From Candidatus Woesearchaeota archaeon (GTDB lineage: Archaea; Nanobdellota; Nanobdellia; Nanobdellales; CAZNIQ01): a stretch of 18,993 bases of DNA. Under the pieces are notes generated by a model, which saw nothing but the letters and a program-made list of their open reading frames with translations, was not told where the DNA came from and ran no database searches. The DNA lies in NCBI GenBank assembly GCA_964573185.1, contig CAZNIQ010000009.1, positions 5,640 to 24,632 on the forward strand. The letters run 5' to 3'. Positions 1,859 through 14,321 of this stretch are shown one piece after another. The position numbers and the translations under genes were made by a program. Numbering within the stretch: position 1 is the first letter of the stretch; each line of letters begins with the position of its first letter.

Positions 1859-2634
1859 GGGGTATATTTATTTTTCAAATACTTTATAAAACTTACAGGA
1901 AGTCCTACAAAGACCTTTAATAAGAGATCTAATGCACTGGTATAAATTGCTACAAACATTAAATATATGTAAATAAAATATCTCTGAATTAGAGCTTTTG
2001 TAAGATCTGATGTATTAACATTTTCTATAGGAGATTCTTTAATAGCTTTTAATAAAGCATAATATTCTTCTGGGGTAAGTTTTCCCATATCAACCATAGC
2101 TCTTAAAGCATCTTTAACACCCTGTATATAGATATCCTTAATCTGATGAGAAAAAGTATACATTAATTTCTTTAAAGGAATCTCAATTTGTTGTATTACA
2201 AAGTTATAAGCTAAATCTTTGTTTAAAATTAGTATAAGTATTGAAATTAATATTATTGTAAAGGTGGCAATAGAAATCTTTTTTCTTACATCTGAAAATG
2301 TATCCCAGAAATTTTTTCCTTGTATAAACATAAACGGAAACAAAAGGATATAGAGAAATAAAGATTGAAAAGTCCTGAAATAAAAAATAAGGAAAAAAGA
2401 TATTATTAGAAAAATTATTCTTGCTACTTTACTTAAGAACATTGATAGAATAATTATGACTAAAAATAGAAAATAGATTCTTAGAATAACAAAAATATTT
2501 GGATTAAAAAGAAAATGAATTGTAATTTCATTTACTGATTGGAACAAGAGGAAAAGAAGGGGAAGAATGATTATTAATAGAAAATCTGACGAGGACCACT
2601 TCTTCATTATATCAGTAGCGGTAGAACTCTTCAT
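1855..2634 (-). CDS. Polytopic membrane protein, unknown function
   Basis: 259-aa ORF with several long hydrophobic stretches (LLIIILPLLFLLF, FLFLVIIILSMFL, IIFLIISFFLIFYF, FTIILISILILIL, IYIYLMFVAIY). First gene of a four-gene unit linked by ATGA or short overlaps. Alternative start at M10 (2607). No family recognised. Confidence 0.6.
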   Translation of the reverse strand: MKSSTATDIMKKWSSSDFLLIIILPLLFLLFQSVNEITIHFLFNPNIFVILRIYFLFLVIIILSMFLSKVARIIFLIISFFLIFYFRTFQSLFLYILLFPFMFIQGKNFWDTFSDVRKKISIATFTIILISILILILNKDLAYNFVIQQIEIPLKKLMYTFSHQIKDIYIQGVKDALRAMVDMGKLTPEEYYALLKAIKESPIENVNTSDLTKALIQRYFIYIYLMFVAIYTSALDLLLKVFVGLPVSFIKYLKNKYTP

Positions 2635-2663: not shown

Positions 2664-3704
2664 ATGAAGCTTATGTTCCTATTTTCAGGGGAAAACCCTT
2701 TAATGGCAAAAGCCGAATTAGAGAGCGTTTTAATAGGGGAAAGAATTAACTTTCACAATTTATATTTCTCTGAAGAAGATAGAATTGGTATATATAAAAT
2801 AGAGGGCAATGATTTGGAAAGAATTTTTTCAAGATTGATTTTAACGCATAAAGTTTATTCTTATATTTTCTTCTCCGATCACAAAAATTTCTACGATTCC
2901 GCTAAAAGAATTAGTTGGAATTTATATATAGAGCCCCCTTATTACGTAAGAGTTATTAGAATTCCTTCTGGAAATAAAGCTTTACAAGGAATAAGAGAAA
3001 AATTTGCAGATATAATATGGTATTCTTTAAAAAATCCAAAAGTAGATGTAAGAAACCCTAAAACTATTATTGACGTAATAGTAACTCCAAAAAAAGTATT
3101 TGTAGGTAGATTATTTTTAGATGTAAAAGCTTTGAGAAAAGATCTTAAAAATAGAAATCCGGAGAAAAGACCAATTTTTCATCCTGCTGCTTTAAGACCA
3201 AAGGAAGCAAGATTATTGATTAACTTTGCAAGAGTAAAACCCGGGGACTTGATTTTGGATCCTTTTTGTGGAGTAGGATCTATTTTGATTGAAGCTTGTT
3301 TGATGGGTATAAGATCAATAGGAATTGATATAAATGAAGATTTTGTTGAAGGTGCTAAAATAAATTTAGAACATTATTGTAAAAATAAAAATTGGGAGGT
3401 ATATGTTGGAGATGCTACGAAATTGACTAAATATATTAAGGAAAAAGTGGATGCGATAGTAACTGATCCTCCTTATGGAAGATCTTCTAAAGGGACAAAG
3501 GATTTAGAAACATTGTATAAAGAATTTTTGGACGAAGCTTATCACGTTTTAAAAGATAATAAATTTATTTCGATGTTTGTACCACATTATCTTAAAGAGT
3601 ACTTTGAAAAAATAGCTTCTGAAAAATATAAAATAATTTATCATTTTCCAATTTATGTGCATAAAAGTTTGACGAGGGTGTTATACGTTTTACAGAAAAC
3701 TTAA
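2664..3704 (+). CDS. trm11: tRNA (guanine-N2)-methyltransferase, Trm11/Trm-G10 family (THUMP + class I SAM methyltransferase)
   Basis: N-terminus MKLMFLFSGENPLMAKAELESVL is typical of the COG1041/Trm11 family. SAM motif I is LDPFCGVGSILIEA and motif IV is VTDPPYG. Confidence 0.8.
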   Translation: MKLMFLFSGENPLMAKAELESVLIGERINFHNLYFSEEDRIGIYKIEGNDLERIFSRLILTHKVYSYIFFSDHKNFYDSAKRISWNLYIEPPYYVRVIRIPSGNKALQGIREKFADIIWYSLKNPKVDVRNPKTIIDVIVTPKKVFVGRLFLDVKALRKDLKNRNPEKRPIFHPAALRPKEARLLINFARVKPGDLILDPFCGVGSILIEACLMGIRSIGIDINEDFVEGAKINLEHYCKNKNWEVYVGDATKLTKYIKEKVDAIVTDPPYGRSSKGTKDLETLYKEFLDEAYHVLKDNKFISMFVPHYLKEYFEKIASEKYKIIYHFPIYVHKSLTRVLYVLQKT

Positions 3705-3730
3705 AAATAAAGTTTGGACGGAAATCTAAA

Positions 3731-3985
3731 ATGAAGCCTAAGAGAAATGAAAGGTATTATCTTGTAGAGAAGGATGATAAACTGTACCTTTATGATTCTG
3801 AGTTTAATGAGCTAATAGAGTTAGATGAACTGTTAATGCTTGTTTGGTTACTTTCTGATGGATTGAAAACTAAAGAAGAGATTGCAAAAATATTAAAAGA
3901 AGAATTTGAGATCGAAAATTCTGAAGAAATCGTTAAAGAAGCTTTAGAAATTCTAAGAGAGAATAATTTGATAATTTTTAATTAA
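3731..3985 (+). CDS. Small PqqD-family / RiPP-recognition-element (RRE)-like protein
   Basis: 84 aa. YYLVEKDDKLYLYDSEFNELIELDELLMLVWLLSDGLKTKEEIAKILKEEFEIENSEEIVKEALEILRENNLI follows the PqqD-family pattern: beta strands, then L-N/D-x-x-a-x-x-i-W-x-l-l-d-G-x-x-T-x-e-E-I, then acidic helices and a terminal hydrophobic L-I. Lies 26 nt downstream of trm11. Confidence 0.5.
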   Translation: MKPKRNERYYLVEKDDKLYLYDSEFNELIELDELLMLVWLLSDGLKTKEEIAKILKEEFEIENSEEIVKEALEILRENNLIIFN

Positions 3986-4850
3986 CACCATACTTCTTTT
4001 TGAAAAACTCCTTAATATTTTGAACATCTCTTTTGTATAATTCTTCTGCCCCCTCAAAATCTTTTGGAACAGCTTGTGGCCAATCTATAACATAGAAAGT
4101 ACCATCCTGCTTTACCAATATGTTATCAGGTGCTAGATCTCCATGAACAATTCCTTCCTTTTCAACTATCTGATTATAAGTTTCTAAAATGTCGTTTAAC
4201 CATTCTTTCGGATTTTCCAATTTTACCTGTCTTAAGTCTTTTGCAGGGATTCCCGGATAGTCATAAATCATTTTCATAACAACTACATGCCTATTCCAAG
4301 ATATGGGCTCTGGAACAGGATACCTATCAGATAATCTCTGTAAAACATAATGTTCTATCTGAGCTTTAGCCCTAGGGATATCAATTTTATATTCCTCAAT
4401 CTTTAACTCTTTAATTCTCCATTTAATTGCAATATAGGCTAAAGATTTCTTTATTTTTGTAAATTCATGCCCATAGTACCTGTGAAACTTTATAATAACC
4501 CATTCATCATCAGGTGTCAATGCAGAATAAATTAAAGCTTCTTTACCTTCCCCAATCATTGTGCCTAGCTGTTTTATAACATCATTTCTCTTTAAATCCC
4601 AAAGAGCTATTAAATCCAAGCCTTTTTGAGTTATTTTAAATGTCCACTCCTTTAGAACAGGATTATAGCTCATCTGTATAGCTTTCGCTTTATTTAGTTC
4701 CCTAAGCCTTTTCTTTATTTCACTTTCAGGATATGTTATTCTTTCTTTTAATTTGGAATATGGAATCCACTCAAAAGCGTATCTTAAACCTGCAAGTATT
4801 CTAAGTATTGCAGCATGTATTTTATCCATTCCGAGTTCGGGATCATACAT
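3978..4850 (-). CDS. rio2: RIO-type Ser/Thr protein kinase, Rio2 subtype (N-terminal winged helix + RIO domain)
   Basis: Winged-helix part ends in KITQKGLDLIALWDL. The P-loop-like segment is IGEGKEALIY, followed by IIKFHRY. The catalytic/metal loop is IVHGDLAPDNILV..FYVIDWPQAV. Confidence 0.85.
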   Translation of the reverse strand: MYDPELGMDKIHAAILRILAGLRYAFEWIPYSKLKERITYPESEIKKRLRELNKAKAIQMSYNPVLKEWTFKITQKGLDLIALWDLKRNDVIKQLGTMIGEGKEALIYSALTPDDEWVIIKFHRYYGHEFTKIKKSLAYIAIKWRIKELKIEEYKIDIPRAKAQIEHYVLQRLSDRYPVPEPISWNRHVVVMKMIYDYPGIPAKDLRQVKLENPKEWLNDILETYNQIVEKEGIVHGDLAPDNILVKQDGTFYVIDWPQAVPKDFEGAEELYKRDVQNIKEFFKKKYGVN

Positions 4851-12499: not shown

Positions 12500-12512
12500 T
12501 TCATATTTAAAA

Positions 12513-12586
12513 GCCCCGGTAGCTCAGCCTGGTAGAGCGCCGGATTGGTAATCCGGAGGTCCCGGGTTCAAATCCCGGCCGGGGCT
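12513..12586 (+). tRNA. tRNA-Thr (anticodon GGU), intron-less, CCA not encoded
   Basis: Hand-folded cloverleaf. Acceptor GCCCCGG/CCGGGGC; D arm GCTC-AGCCTGGTA-GAGC. Anticodon arm CCGGA-TTGGTAA-TCCGG; variable loop AGGTC. T arm CCGGG-TTCAAAT-CCCGG; discriminator T. By hand count 50 of 74 nt are G+C. Confidence 0.95.
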
Positions 12587-12615
12587 TTCAAAAATATTTT
12601 CCTTAAAGAATTTCA

Positions 12616-13023
12616 ATGGAATGGGGCAAAAAGATAATATTTACATTTAAAGTATCGATAGGGTTAATTCTAACAGCTTTGATACTTCTAATAATTCTTA
12701 AGCTAATGTATTATATTGCTTCGTTAGTCTATCTTAACCCTCTGGAAAGATTTGAGCCTATCAATATTAAAAATATGCTTGGTGATATCCTTTTGGTTTT
12801 TGTTTTAATAGAATTGCTTAGAACTGTTTATATTTATATTACGCAGCAGGATGTCTATTTAAACGCTATATTTGAAGCGGCACTTGTTGCAGTACTGAGG
12901 AAAATAATTTTGGTAGAAGTAGAGAAGTTGGATCCATTATATATTATTTCATTAACCATTATACTTTTAGGTTTGTCATACGTTTATTTTAAAATGATGA
13001 AGGATCAACGAACAGAAGAATGA
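12616..13023 (+). CDS. Small four-TM membrane protein, PsiE (phosphate-starvation-inducible E)-like
   Basis: 135 aa. LLVFVLIELLRTVYIYI and EAALVAVLRKIILVE resemble the paired PsiE-family helices (compare E. coli PsiE YFLYFEFIALIVKYF and GITAIVRLIIVDH, recalled from memory). Confidence 0.5.
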   Translation: MEWGKKIIFTFKVSIGLILTALILLIILKLMYYIASLVYLNPLERFEPINIKNMLGDILLVFVLIELLRTVYIYITQQDVYLNAIFEAALVAVLRKIILVEVEKLDPLYIISLTIILLGLSYVYFKMMKDQRTEE

Positions 13024-13042
13024 AGATTTGCCTACCGACTGA
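12994..13042 (+). ncRNA. Candidate C/D-box sRNA 1 (overlaps the last 10 codons of the PsiE-like CDS)
   Basis: C box ATGATGA at 12994-13000, then a 12-nt guide aggatcaacgaa. D' CAGA at 13013-13016, then spacer agaa. C' TGAAGA at 13021-13026, then a 12-nt guide tttgcctaccga. D box CTGA at 13039-13042. Confidence 0.55.
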
Positions 13043-13090
13043 TGATGAGCATCGGATCTGCGGATTAGTGAAGAAGCTTCTCGTCTCTGA
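13042..13090 (+). ncRNA. Candidate C/D-box sRNA 2 (intergenic; 3' half antisense to the last codons of tgtA)
   Basis: C box ATGATGA at 13042-13048, then a 12-nt guide gcatcggatctg. D' CGGA at 13061-13064, then spacer ttag. C' TGAAGA at 13069-13074, then a 12-nt guide agcttctcgtct. D box CTGA at 13087-13090. Same spacing as sRNA 1, exactly 48 nt downstream. Confidence 0.6.
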
Positions 13091-14321
13091 TATTCTTTAA
13101 ATCCTTGAACGGATAAAGATATTCATAAATCAAATCATAATCTCTTGGATCCACTCTTTCTTTTAACCTTTCTAAAGCCCTTTTTATATCAGCTCTTAAT
13201 TCTAATAATTCTCCTTTATAAGTAATCCCCCATCTCTTTCTTATAGGATCTAATTTCTTTAACCATTCATAATATTTTTCCAAAACAAATTTAGTAGCCT
13301 CATAAACTTTATAATGGCTGTGAGCTTTCAGAAAAACCCATTCATATAGATATCCGTTATAAATAGCATCCTTTATTATTTCTATTTCTTTTTTAAGTAC
13401 CCAAAGATTGTGTGCTGCCAAAATTTTTATTCTTTCTCTTTCATCTAAAGAAAGCACTTCTTTTAAGTCATAGAACCCATAAGGAGTTTCAAACTCAAAA
13501 TATTTTAATTCTTCCAATCTCACTGTTCCAAAAGGAGTTAAAATTCTATTATCATAAGCGTATAAAGCATATGAGGCTGAATCGAAGATATCATTACCTA
13601 ATAAAACCGATAGCGGTAGAATTAAAGGGTGTCCTAAACCAAAGAGATGAACCGGTTTGTTTAAAGGTAAATTTATTCTAGCTTCCATAATAATCTCAAA
13701 AAGTTTTTTGAATTCATATTTAATCATATATGGAACTATAGTACCTGTAGCAAAAATATCTACATCTAACTTTGATATTTTAAAAGCAGCTTCTCTTCTT
13801 AGATCTATATATATTCCACCTTGAATAGCACCATTTATTAAACCATCATAATTTTTTTCCTTTTTGATTTCTAATCCCTCTTTAATTCTTTCTAAAGTTA
13901 TCTCCAAATCCCTTTTTGCCCGTTCATAAGAAGCATCTACATCGGTAGGTATATCTAGAACATTTATTATATCTGAATTAATTTTTATTTGGAACTTCAC
14001 TATAGTTTTATTATCTACCTCGATTTCTTTTTTATAATGAAGCATCTGATACGATCCTGAATCTGTTTCAATTACTCCATTAAAGTTTAAGAATTTATGG
14101 ATATCCTCTATTTGAAATTTATTTTTGTAAAGTATATAAGCATTAGTAATTATTGTGTTTATCTTAAATTTCTTTTCAATATCTTTTGGATGAATTATCA
14201 ATTTATTCGGATTAATTACCGGAAATAAAAAAGGTGTTTCTACTTTTTTGCCTCTAACATAAAGGATTCCTATCCTAGAAGCACTATCTCCTCGTTCCTT
14301 AATTTCAAACATTTTATACAT
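13065..14321 (-). CDS. tgtA: Archaeosine tRNA-guanine transglycosylase, catalytic (TIM-barrel) subunit only, no PUA region
   Basis: MFEIKERGDSASRIGIL..VETPFLFPV, then ETDSGSYQ, VHLFGLGHP, NDIFDSASYALYA and LAAHNLW, all TGT family motifs. At 418 aa it is too short for the C2/PUA domains. The likely true start is M4 at 14312, based on homolog N-termini and TATA spacing. Confidence 0.85.
   Translation of the reverse strand: MYKMFEIKERGDSASRIGILYVRGKKVETPFLFPVINPNKLIIHPKDIEKKFKINTIITNAYILYKNKFQIEDIHKFLNFNGVIETDSGSYQMLHYKKEIEVDNKTIVKFQIKINSDIINVLDIPTDVDASYERAKRDLEITLERIKEGLEIKKEKNYDGLINGAIQGGIYIDLRREAAFKISKLDVDIFATGTIVPYMIKYEFKKLFEIIMEARINLPLNKPVHLFGLGHPLILPLSVLLGNDIFDSASYALYAYDNRILTPFGTVRLEELKYFEFETPYGFYDLKEVLSLDERERIKILAAHNLWVLKKEIEIIKDAIYNGYLYEWVFLKAHSHYKVYEATKFVLEKYYEWLKKLDPIRKRWGITYKGELLELRADIKRALERLKERVDPRDYDLIYEYLYPFKDLKNIRDEKLLH

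Follow-up and report, generated by a model that had tools for sequence, protein, structure and literature searches.

Two tandem predicted C/D box sRNA genes between convergent psiE and tgtA genes of a nanoarchaeal genome, one with a conserved guide complementary to the 5′ end of 16S rRNA

An 18,993-nt stretch of contig CAZNIQ010000009.1 from a Candidatus Woesearchaeota archaeon (assembly GCA_964573185.1; hereafter the window) carries two head-to-tail 49-nt units on its + strand (12994-13090), which are very probably archaeal C/D box methylation-guide small RNA (sRNA) genes, a known kind of gene in a known arrangement; we put the probability of this reading at about 0.85. It draws on box architecture and its statistics, similarity to profiles of known sRNAs, homology of the 5′ half of the first unit (unit 1) and complementarity to the 16S rRNA of relatives. 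Archaeal C/D sRNAs assemble with L7Ae, Nop5 and fibrillarin and 2′-O-methylate the nucleotide paired to the fifth guide position upstream of the D or D′ box (N+5). We infer that the units would be expressed, processed, assembled into ribonucleoproteins (RNPs) and active in methylation.

Unit 1 reads ATGATGA AGGATCAACGAA CAGA AGAA TGAAGA TTTGCCTACCGA CTGA (12994-13042) and unit 2 reads ATGATGA GCATCGGATCTG CGGA TTAG TGAAGA AGCTTCTCGTCT CTGA (13042-13090). Their starts are 48 nt apart and they have A13042 in common, which ends D box 1 and is the first base of C box 2. Terminal C (AUGAUGA) and D (CUGA) boxes are perfect in both units, the internal D′ and C′ boxes retain the GA dinucleotides required for the k-loop, and guide and loop lengths are 12-4-12 in each. 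The boxes and spacing are identical in layout and the guides agree at only 1/12 and 2/12 positions, the family signature of constrained boxes and free guides. Recent tandem duplication was considered and rejected on the dissimilarity of the guides and loops; any duplication must be old. A relaxed scan of both strands (RTGATGA, 11-13-nt guide, NNGA, 3-9-nt loop, TGATGA with ≤1 mismatch, 11-13-nt guide, CTGA) returned units 1 and 2 as the sole matches in the whole window. None of 2000 dinucleotide-preserving shuffles of the window contained even one unit, and the analytic, composition-based expectation is 6.4e-6 units per window. A sequence-only reading of this DNA, made by a model without database searches, had described this layout, spacing, offset and shared base, which an exact check of the sequence bore out in every detail, and had judged a chance origin improbable, with which the shuffles agree. 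The GC-rich island that it reported is real and modest (44% in the cassette against 31% in the 500-nt flanks; window overall, 30%). The cassette is base-for-base identical in two more metagenome assemblies of the same species (Logan SRR7968109, L001/L053; ENA ERZ27262635, L052, the latter with 99.83% identity over 9.4 kb), and because these are independent, an assembly artefact is ruled out.

The closest experimentally defined counterparts are the 26 C/D sRNAs identified by RNA-seq in Nanoarchaeum equitans (Randau 2012, PMC3491384; sequences in Additional file 2). These share with the units a compact C-12-D′-4-C′-12-D layout, most with the same spacing, as well as UGAAGA and CAGA box variants and unpaired ends, and most overlap mRNAs. 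The CGGA variant of the unit 2 D′ box is not among them, although other NNGA variants are. N. equitans sRNA5 and unit 2 both read ATGATGA..TTAG-TGAAGA-A..CTGA, but sRNA5 lies upstream of the tgtA N-terminal part NEQ124 on the same strand, whereas unit 2 is antisense at the tgtA 3′ end; some N. equitans sRNAs adjoin split genes, tgtA included (PMC3491384). Their guides differ from those of the units, with 0/26 carrying the GGAUCAACG guide of unit 1, and none directly abuts another sRNA. A profile hidden Markov model (HMM) built from 25 of these sRNAs, aligned by their boxes and run over the 19-kb window (nhmmer, filters off), gave exactly three full-length matches: unit 1 (E = 3.2e-4), unit 2 (E = 5.7e-4) and a third candidate described below; the remainder were partial, with E > 3. 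The Rfam models sR5, sR3 and sR1 and about fifteen other archaeal C/D families aligned to the units end to end, in register and on the + strand only, at 26-29 bits (E ~4e-5 to 8e-5 for sR5/sR3/sR1; unit 2 scored 29.1 bits with sR5 and 27 bits with sR3) relative to gathering scores of 40-45. No stable fold (z = +0.89) and no terminator-like hairpin sites were found in the cassette region, as expected for guide RNAs, and a hairpin, terminator or other structured-RNA reading was discarded on both counts. No gene for L7Ae, Nop5 or fibrillarin lies within the window; these core genes are present in N. equitans (PMC3491384).

Unit 1 also has relatives. A pattern made of its C box, guide core and D′ box (ATGATGANGGATCAACGNNNNGA; ATGATGA-N-GGATCAACG-NNNN-GA) was searched against 185,579 genomes, one per species, and matched 19 times. 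Eight matches are scattered among bacteria and lack further boxes; the other 11 are from Nanoarchaeota and Woesearchaeota (six Nanopusillus metagenome-assembled genomes (MAGs), N. acidilobi, two Nanobsidianus stetteri, Nanoarchaeota YN1, Nanopusillaceae KM4331-08 and one Woesearchaeota MAG), and all 11 are complete C/D sRNAs. Together with the shared N. equitans layout, the HMM matches and the in-register Rfam alignments, this conservation upholds the C/D sRNA interpretation first made from the letters alone. Unit 1 agrees with KM4331-08 at 21/23 positions of its C box, D′ guide and D′ box, with equal spacing, and the family guide is GGAUCAACG. In the ten nanoarchaeal loci, a TTTAAAAA box starts ~24 nt upstream, the tail downstream is A/T-rich and contains runs of T, and the consensus is ATGATGA-(T/A)GGATCAACGAT-CTGA-ATAG-TGATGA-TTGATGGGCAAA-CTGA. 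When 14 sRNAs are aligned, the columns without variation coincide exactly with the C, D′, C′ and D boxes, and the guides vary. This result covers the unit 1 family; the prediction that relatives would conserve boxes and not guides thus holds there and finds no counterpart for unit 2, for which the metagenome scan gave no homologue. By sequence similarity, unit 1 is, in its 5′ half, a member of a guide family that is conserved across Nanoarchaeota, and its D guide differs.

The family member in Nanopusillus, Nanobsidianus, YN1 and KM4331-08 is a stand-alone sRNA that shares with unit 1 the C box, the D′ guide (U/A)GGAUCAACGA(U/C), the D′ box and the spacing. Unlike unit 1, it has its own TTTAAAAA promoter box, a T-rich tail, canonical CTGA and TGATGA boxes and no second sRNA behind it, and where its flanks were checked it sits beside rpS17, often with 5S rRNA. 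In the flanks examined (L020, L025 and L054), it is divergent from the rpS17-L14-L24-S4e operon, and L018 and L025 have the 5S rRNA gene close to it; in L056 and L057, a 5S rRNA gene is found ~30 nt downstream on the same strand. Its D guide UUGAUGGGCAAA, where unit 1 has UUUGCCUACCGA, pairs with 16S GCCCGUCA and places the equivalent of E. coli C1402 at N+5, a position that we take to be 2′-O-methylated in bacteria and eukaryotes. The GAUGGGC core of this guide pairs with 16S GCCCGUC (L013, L015, L018-L021, L023, L025, L027, L028 and L054-L058), the match to the C1402 region being only marginally better than for shuffled guides (fraction 0.08); a variant guide in L057, UAGAUGGGCGUG, extends the pairing towards C1400.

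Guide halves have been exchanged within this family. Unit 1 keeps the D′ guide with a new D guide, and the rpS17-upstream sRNAs of L056 and L057/L058 do the converse, keeping the GAUGGGC D guide with a different D′ guide, which argues that halves were re-paired between lineages; the S17 homologue loci (L054-L058), sought in order to tell relocation of unit 1 from paralogy, come from other samples and species than the window. Such re-pairing has been reviewed for other archaea (PMC7994747). The sRNA of the Woesearchaeota MAG (L029 6670-6719, + strand) has the family D′ guide (CGGAUCAACGAA) alongside a degenerate C′ box, UGAAGG. Its D guide pairs with 16S nt 24-35, with C28 at N+5, the same site as that of the N. 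equitans sRNA5 D′ guide. The partner guide therefore varies by lineage (helix 18 for unit 1, as described below, the C1402 region and C28), making the family a clear natural example of guide-half shuffling. We note a resemblance between the unit 1 D guide TTTGCCTACCGA and the relatives' D guide TTGATGGGCAAA (L013-L028) when the latter is reverse-complemented: 9/12 positions agree, and all three differences are transitions; the chance of such a match is ~4e-4 per register, and coincidence is possible.

Targets were evaluated on rRNA of relatives whose tgtA is 64-70% identical to that of the window (two complete 16S sequences, L002 and L003, and one nearly complete 23S sequence, L007), with 60 shuffled guides as control. 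With 16S nt 6-15 (CGUUGAUCCU), the unit 1 D′ guide AGGAUCAACGAA makes an unbroken run of 10 Watson-Crick pairs, and its duplex on nt 3-15 has a calculated energy of -16.5 kcal/mol, equalled by 0/60 shuffled guides. N+5 falls on 16S U8, ~E. coli U13 in our own alignment. Nanoarchaeota 16S begins AUUCCCGUUGAUCCU, and on this sequence a lead to the 16S 5′ end that had been offered as weak gains strength, with 10 contiguous pairs rather than nine. The unit 1 D guide UUUGCCUACCGA forms 9 Watson-Crick and 2 GU pairs with 16S nt 452-462 (GCGGUGGGCAAG); on nt 451-463, this duplex reaches -18.8 kcal/mol and 1/60 shuffled guides did as well. The site is the base of 16S helix 18, with N+5 at U456 (~E. 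coli 504), and helix 18 is a hotspot of archaeal guide-directed methylation (PMC4644070).

Several observations weigh against this identification or limit it. At Rfam gathering thresholds, the window yields two tRNAs only, with both units under threshold, so that covariance models support the assignment in register and strand and fall short in score. We do not count this miss as counter-evidence, because the clearly conserved sRNAs of the relatives likewise go unreported and the threshold is thus uninformative for this clade. The targets proposed here all come from relatives' 16S and 23S rRNA. For the unit 1 D′ guide there is also a competing, nearly equal site in 23S (nt 95-106, ACCGUUGAUCCG; around nt 99), where the window guide forms 9 pairs and the Nanopusillus version UGGAUCAACGAU forms 10 Watson-Crick pairs plus 1 GU. 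For the window organism, 16S is favoured because its D′ guide has A at positions 1 and 12, because the woesearchaeal D guide site C28 is only 20 nt from U8 and because all three partner guides of the family match best in 16S; we would back 16S over 23S by roughly two to one. The unit 2 guides matched relatives' 16S and 23S no better than shuffled guides (fractions 0.28 and 0.40), and no 7-8-nt run of either unit 2 target sequence is present in those molecules. A 12-bp match of unit 2 to 16S nt 1152-1164 was not accepted, as it requires a bulged target base. Complementarity to rRNA of at least 9 bp with a Watson-Crick pair at N+5, which had been suggested as a check on all four guides, is therefore seen for both guides of unit 1 and for neither guide of unit 2 on the relatives' rRNA. 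Metagenome contigs scanned with the unit 2 D′ guide ATGATGANNATCGGATCTNNNGA yielded no homologue: all 21 matches are attributable to chance, in unrelated, mostly GC-richer contigs without C′ or D boxes. On these comparisons, unit 2 is an intact box set with apparently orphan guides, which are common, especially where sRNAs overlap protein-coding sequences (CDSs) (PMC6009581, PMC7994747).

The cassette is also confined to one species. No C/D unit was found at the tgtA or psiE 3′ ends in L002-L011, comprising tgtA homologue loci (L002, 70% identity; L003/L004, 64%) and psiE homologue loci (L005-L011; 76%, 67% and 60% identity), so the tandem itself is species-specific, missing from every relative's psiE or tgtA 3′ end examined. 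The neighbours also differ there, and synteny is not conserved. In L002 and L003, the 16S rRNA gene precedes tgtA and another open reading frame (ORF) follows it; 3′ of psiE are a helicase gene (L005/L006), a prolyl-tRNA synthetase gene (L007-L010) or the contig end (L011).

The absence of targets and homologues for unit 2 suggests one alternative, namely that unit 2, or both units, is a relic or a recent duplicate that does not yet function, whose boxes are intact and whose guides have drifted or are dictated by tgtA codons. Besides the lack of an above-chance target in relatives' 16S and 23S, of a D′ guide homologue in 241 million metagenome records and the frequency of orphan guides among CDS-overlapping sRNAs (PMC6009581, PMC7994747), this is consistent with the finding that the only exact or near target of unit 2 in the loci examined is the antisense tgtA strand. 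However, all four boxes of unit 2 are intact at exact 12-4-12 spacing, whereas inactive sRNA genes would mutate fast, as argued by Randau (PMC3491384), and 2/26 expressed N. equitans sRNAs also lack predicted targets (PMC3491384). A target may, moreover, exist in the organism's own rRNA or tRNAs or in variable rRNA regions, outside the relatives' rRNA tested. We therefore consider decay or non-function unlikely.

Another possibility concerns what the conserved guide does. The eukaryotic U3 small nucleolar RNA (snoRNA) is likewise a C/D-class RNA, and its box A/A′ pairs with 18S nt 6-22 (PMC4340053), in the same small-subunit (SSU) 5′ sequence, GUUGAUCCUG; the segment paired by both U3 and the unit 1 D′ guide forms helix 1 as well as the 5′ strand of the central pseudoknot. 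U3 differs in pairing through a 5′ extension, in having B/C boxes and pairing to the 5′ external transcribed spacer, and in not methylating, whereas unit 1 would pair through a 12-nt D′ guide of the usual kind, set in the register for methylation. Archaea are stated to have no U3-like sRNAs (PMC3608112). Homology to U3 was rejected, as unit 1 lacks a 5′ extension and extra boxes and would pair through a plain D′ guide, flanked by its C and D′ boxes. The GGAUCAACG guide could nonetheless act as a trans-acting chaperone of the 16S 5′ end, besides or instead of directing methylation, while its partner guide holds a distant 16S element, which for this organism may be helix 18, for Nanopusillus the C1402 region and for the woesearchaeon C28; a fused tandem could then act as a four-guide particle. 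We regard this as speculative and improbable. If true, it would amount to a functional counterpart of U3 box A pairing in a domain from which U3-like RNAs are said to be missing. Since the predicted 5′-end site is that of U3, the question of U3-like trans-pairing in archaea becomes directly testable.

If the units are guide RNA genes, both would most likely be made from one + strand transcript, arising by psiE read-through or from a start inside the psiE 3′ end. No separate promoter could fit between D box 1, whose last base is 13042, and the C box 2 core, which begins at 13043. L7Ae, Nop5 and fibrillarin would assemble on the kink-turn (k-turn) and k-loop, and trimming would proceed as far as the box cores shielded by protein. 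The k-turn core does not include the first base of RUGAUGA, and because the essential UGAUGA of unit 2 begins at 13043, right behind the CUGA of unit 1, a single cleavage between 13042 and 13043 would release both RNAs. In N. equitans, several sRNAs have their 5′ end exactly one base ahead of UGAUGA (PMC3491384). The D′ guide of unit 1 would then direct 2′-O-methylation at 16S U8 (or 23S ~nt 99) and its D guide at ~E. coli 504, at the base of helix 18. It is plausible that the units are transcribed together with psiE and processed from a dicistron. About 30-35 nt ahead of unit 1 there is an archaeal TATA-like string, ATTATAC, of a kind frequent in DNA of 30% GC, and we make no promoter claim. 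A sigma-70 promoter scan showed no enrichment, and its model is irrelevant for archaea. Being antisense to the 3′ end of tgtA, unit 2 could also affect regulation, a kind of side effect considered for Pyrobaculum (PMC6009581).

The same geometry would also suit an uncut ~97-nt RNA with four guides, two C/D and two C′/D′ motifs, forming one covalently linked double sRNP. That D box 1 runs directly into the C box 2 core, with no spacer, is consistent with this, and Lui et al. call the maturation of an overlapping pair unclear (PMC6009581). However, no precedent for a functional double-length archaeal sRNA was found in the literature searched, and N. equitans sRNAs are all 52-61 nt, some starting one base before UGAUGA, which fits a cut between 13042 and 13043. 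A single long particle is thus a very remote prospect, and two separately released guide RNAs are preferred.

Both flanking genes read into the cassette (Table 1). Its overlaps with the 3′ end of the PsiE-like CDS and, in antisense, with the end of tgtA (archaeosine tRNA-guanine transglycosylase) are as originally described. The psiE stop codon TGA falls inside the unit 1 C′ box, and its final 10 codons (MMKDQRTEE*) coincide with unit 1 from the C box through the D′ guide, D′ box and loop to the start of the C′ box. In turn, 26 nt of unit 2 fall within tgtA, where the loop, C′ box, D guide and D box of unit 2 lie antisense to the final 7 codons and the stop of that gene. The closest PsiE homologue ends ..YFKLLKD*, whereas the PsiE of the window ends ..YFKMMKDQRTEE; other PsiE homologues end ..KMQKQDQ and ..KQYK*, and no sRNA lies behind the PsiE homologues. 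Similarly, the closest tgtA homologues end ..YPFKDLKNIK* and that of the window ends ..YPFKDLKNIRDEKLLH (C-terminal part ..KDLKNIRDEKLLH). Both flanking ORFs are ~5 codons longer than their closest homologues, the extra codons being the cassette read as codons. The stand-alone sRNA of L025, read as an ORF start, gives MMKDQRSEE, nearly the MMKDQRTEE tail of the window PsiE, so the tail is an sRNA read as codons and the boxes are not by-products of conserved codons. Each unit lies partly within a CDS and convergent genes need termination signals, yet an origin of the pattern in coincidence of codons (KMMKDQRTEE / RDEKLLH) with AT-rich intergenic sequence, or in a bidirectional terminator, is effectively refuted by the shuffles (0/2000; 6e-6 expected), by the absence of these codon tails from the closest homologues, by the occurrence of the same sequence in relatives as a non-coding stand-alone gene and by the lack of a hairpin or fold signal. 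Both flanking protein annotations thus carry tails of about five residues that are really sRNA sequence. In L025, a listed ORF (3482-4039, + strand) begins within the stand-alone sRNA (MMKDQRSEEMMNDGQTE...), and its true start is probably farther downstream, a case showing that C/D sRNAs inflate ORF calls in AT-rich genomes of this kind.

Table 1 Coordinates of the two units, the third candidate and neighbouring genes in the window.
Feature	Position	Strand	Sequence or remark
Unit 1 C box	12994-13000	+	AUGAUGA
Unit 1 D′ guide	13001-13012	+	AGGAUCAACGAA
Unit 1 D′ box	13013-13016	+	CAGA
Unit 1 loop	13017-13020	+	
Unit 1 C′ box	13021-13026	+	UGAAGA
Unit 1 D guide	13027-13038	+	UUUGCCUACCGA
Unit 1 D box	13039-13042	+	CUGA
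Unit 2 C box	13042-13048	+	AUGAUGA; core UGAUGA from 13043
Unit 2 D′ guide	13049-13060	+	GCAUCGGAUCUG
Unit 2 D′ box	13061-13064	+	CGGA
Unit 2 loop	13065-13068	+	
Unit 2 C′ box	13069-13074	+	UGAAGA
Unit 2 D guide	13075-13086	+	AGCUUCUCGUCU
Unit 2 D box	13087-13090	+	CUGA
Third C/D sRNA candidate	2585-2634	-	Best N. equitans-profile match, E = 1.8e-4 (nhmmer, 2633-2585)
tRNA-Thr(GGU)	12512-12587	+	28 nt upstream of psiE, same strand
PsiE-family CDS	12616-13023	+	Pfam PsiE 1e-17; possible host transcript of the cassette
tgtA (archaeosine tRNA-guanine transglycosylase)	13065-14321	-	418 aa, catalytic part only; Pfam TGT 7e-66

Tandem, co-transcribed C/D sRNAs have precedents in the Pyrobaculum dicistrons sR34/sR40 and sR101/sR21 (Lui et al.; 2017 work as relayed in PMC7994747). 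In P. neutrophilum, the sR34 D box lies inside the sR40 C box, with a 4-nt overlap, and sense or antisense overlap with CDS 3′ ends forms regular categories in Pyrobaculum (PMC6009581). Pyrobaculum differs in phylum and guides, and the present pair has a 1-nt overlap and lies between two convergent CDSs that read into the cassette. The arrangement had been presented as remarkable; given published overlapping tandem sRNAs and CDS 3′-end overlaps (PMC6009581, PMC7994747, PMC3491384), this was overstated, and interest lies mainly in the conserved 16S 5′-end guide and the shuffling of guide halves rather than in the tandem layout. These genes, the GGAUCAACG guide family with its stand-alone sRNA and its pairing to the SSU 5′ end appear not to have been described, as no description was found in the literature searched. 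Two, and probably three, unannotated guide-RNA genes are thereby added to a nanoarchaeal genome.

The third candidate, the best match to the N. equitans profile in the window, reads ATGAAGA-GTTCTACCGCTA-CTGA-TATAA-TGAAGA-AGTGGTCCTCGT-CAGA followed by TTTT, with TTTAAA at 2664-2659, ~30 nt upstream. Its ATG is the listed start of an ORF (1855-2634; 259 aa, no Pfam match), and it is divergent from a THUMP/UPF0020 RNA methyltransferase gene (2664-3704). Its guides have no above-chance target in the relatives' rRNA.

Elsewhere around the cassette, the tRNA-Thr(GGU) gene is possibly in the same transcription unit as psiE, a tRNA also precedes psiE in the relative L005, and archaellin genes lie upstream in the window. 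The host is a Nanopusillaceae archaeon (Nanoarchaeota). The tgtA homologues with named sources come from Nanopusillaceae, Nanopusillus and Nanoarchaeota MAGs and all lack the PUA part, as does the split tgtA gene of N. equitans (NEQ124; PMC3491384). A 165-167-aa ORF without Pfam match overlaps the tgtA stop in L002 (5239-5742) and L003 (5206-5703); it is absent from the window, where the sRNA cassette holds its position. rRNA genes are unlinked in the relatives, with 16S directly upstream of tgtA (L002 2464-3949, L003 2458-3949) and 23S beside the prolyl-tRNA synthetase and psiE genes (L007 7453-10399). In the window, tgtA adjoins an SBF-family transporter gene instead of 16S, indicating that the region has been rearranged. 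N. equitans has been described as lacking RNase P (PMC3491384), and a Candidatus Nanopusillus scaffold contains a match to archaeal RNase P RNA (L007 1985-2228, + strand; 86.1 bits, gathering 84).

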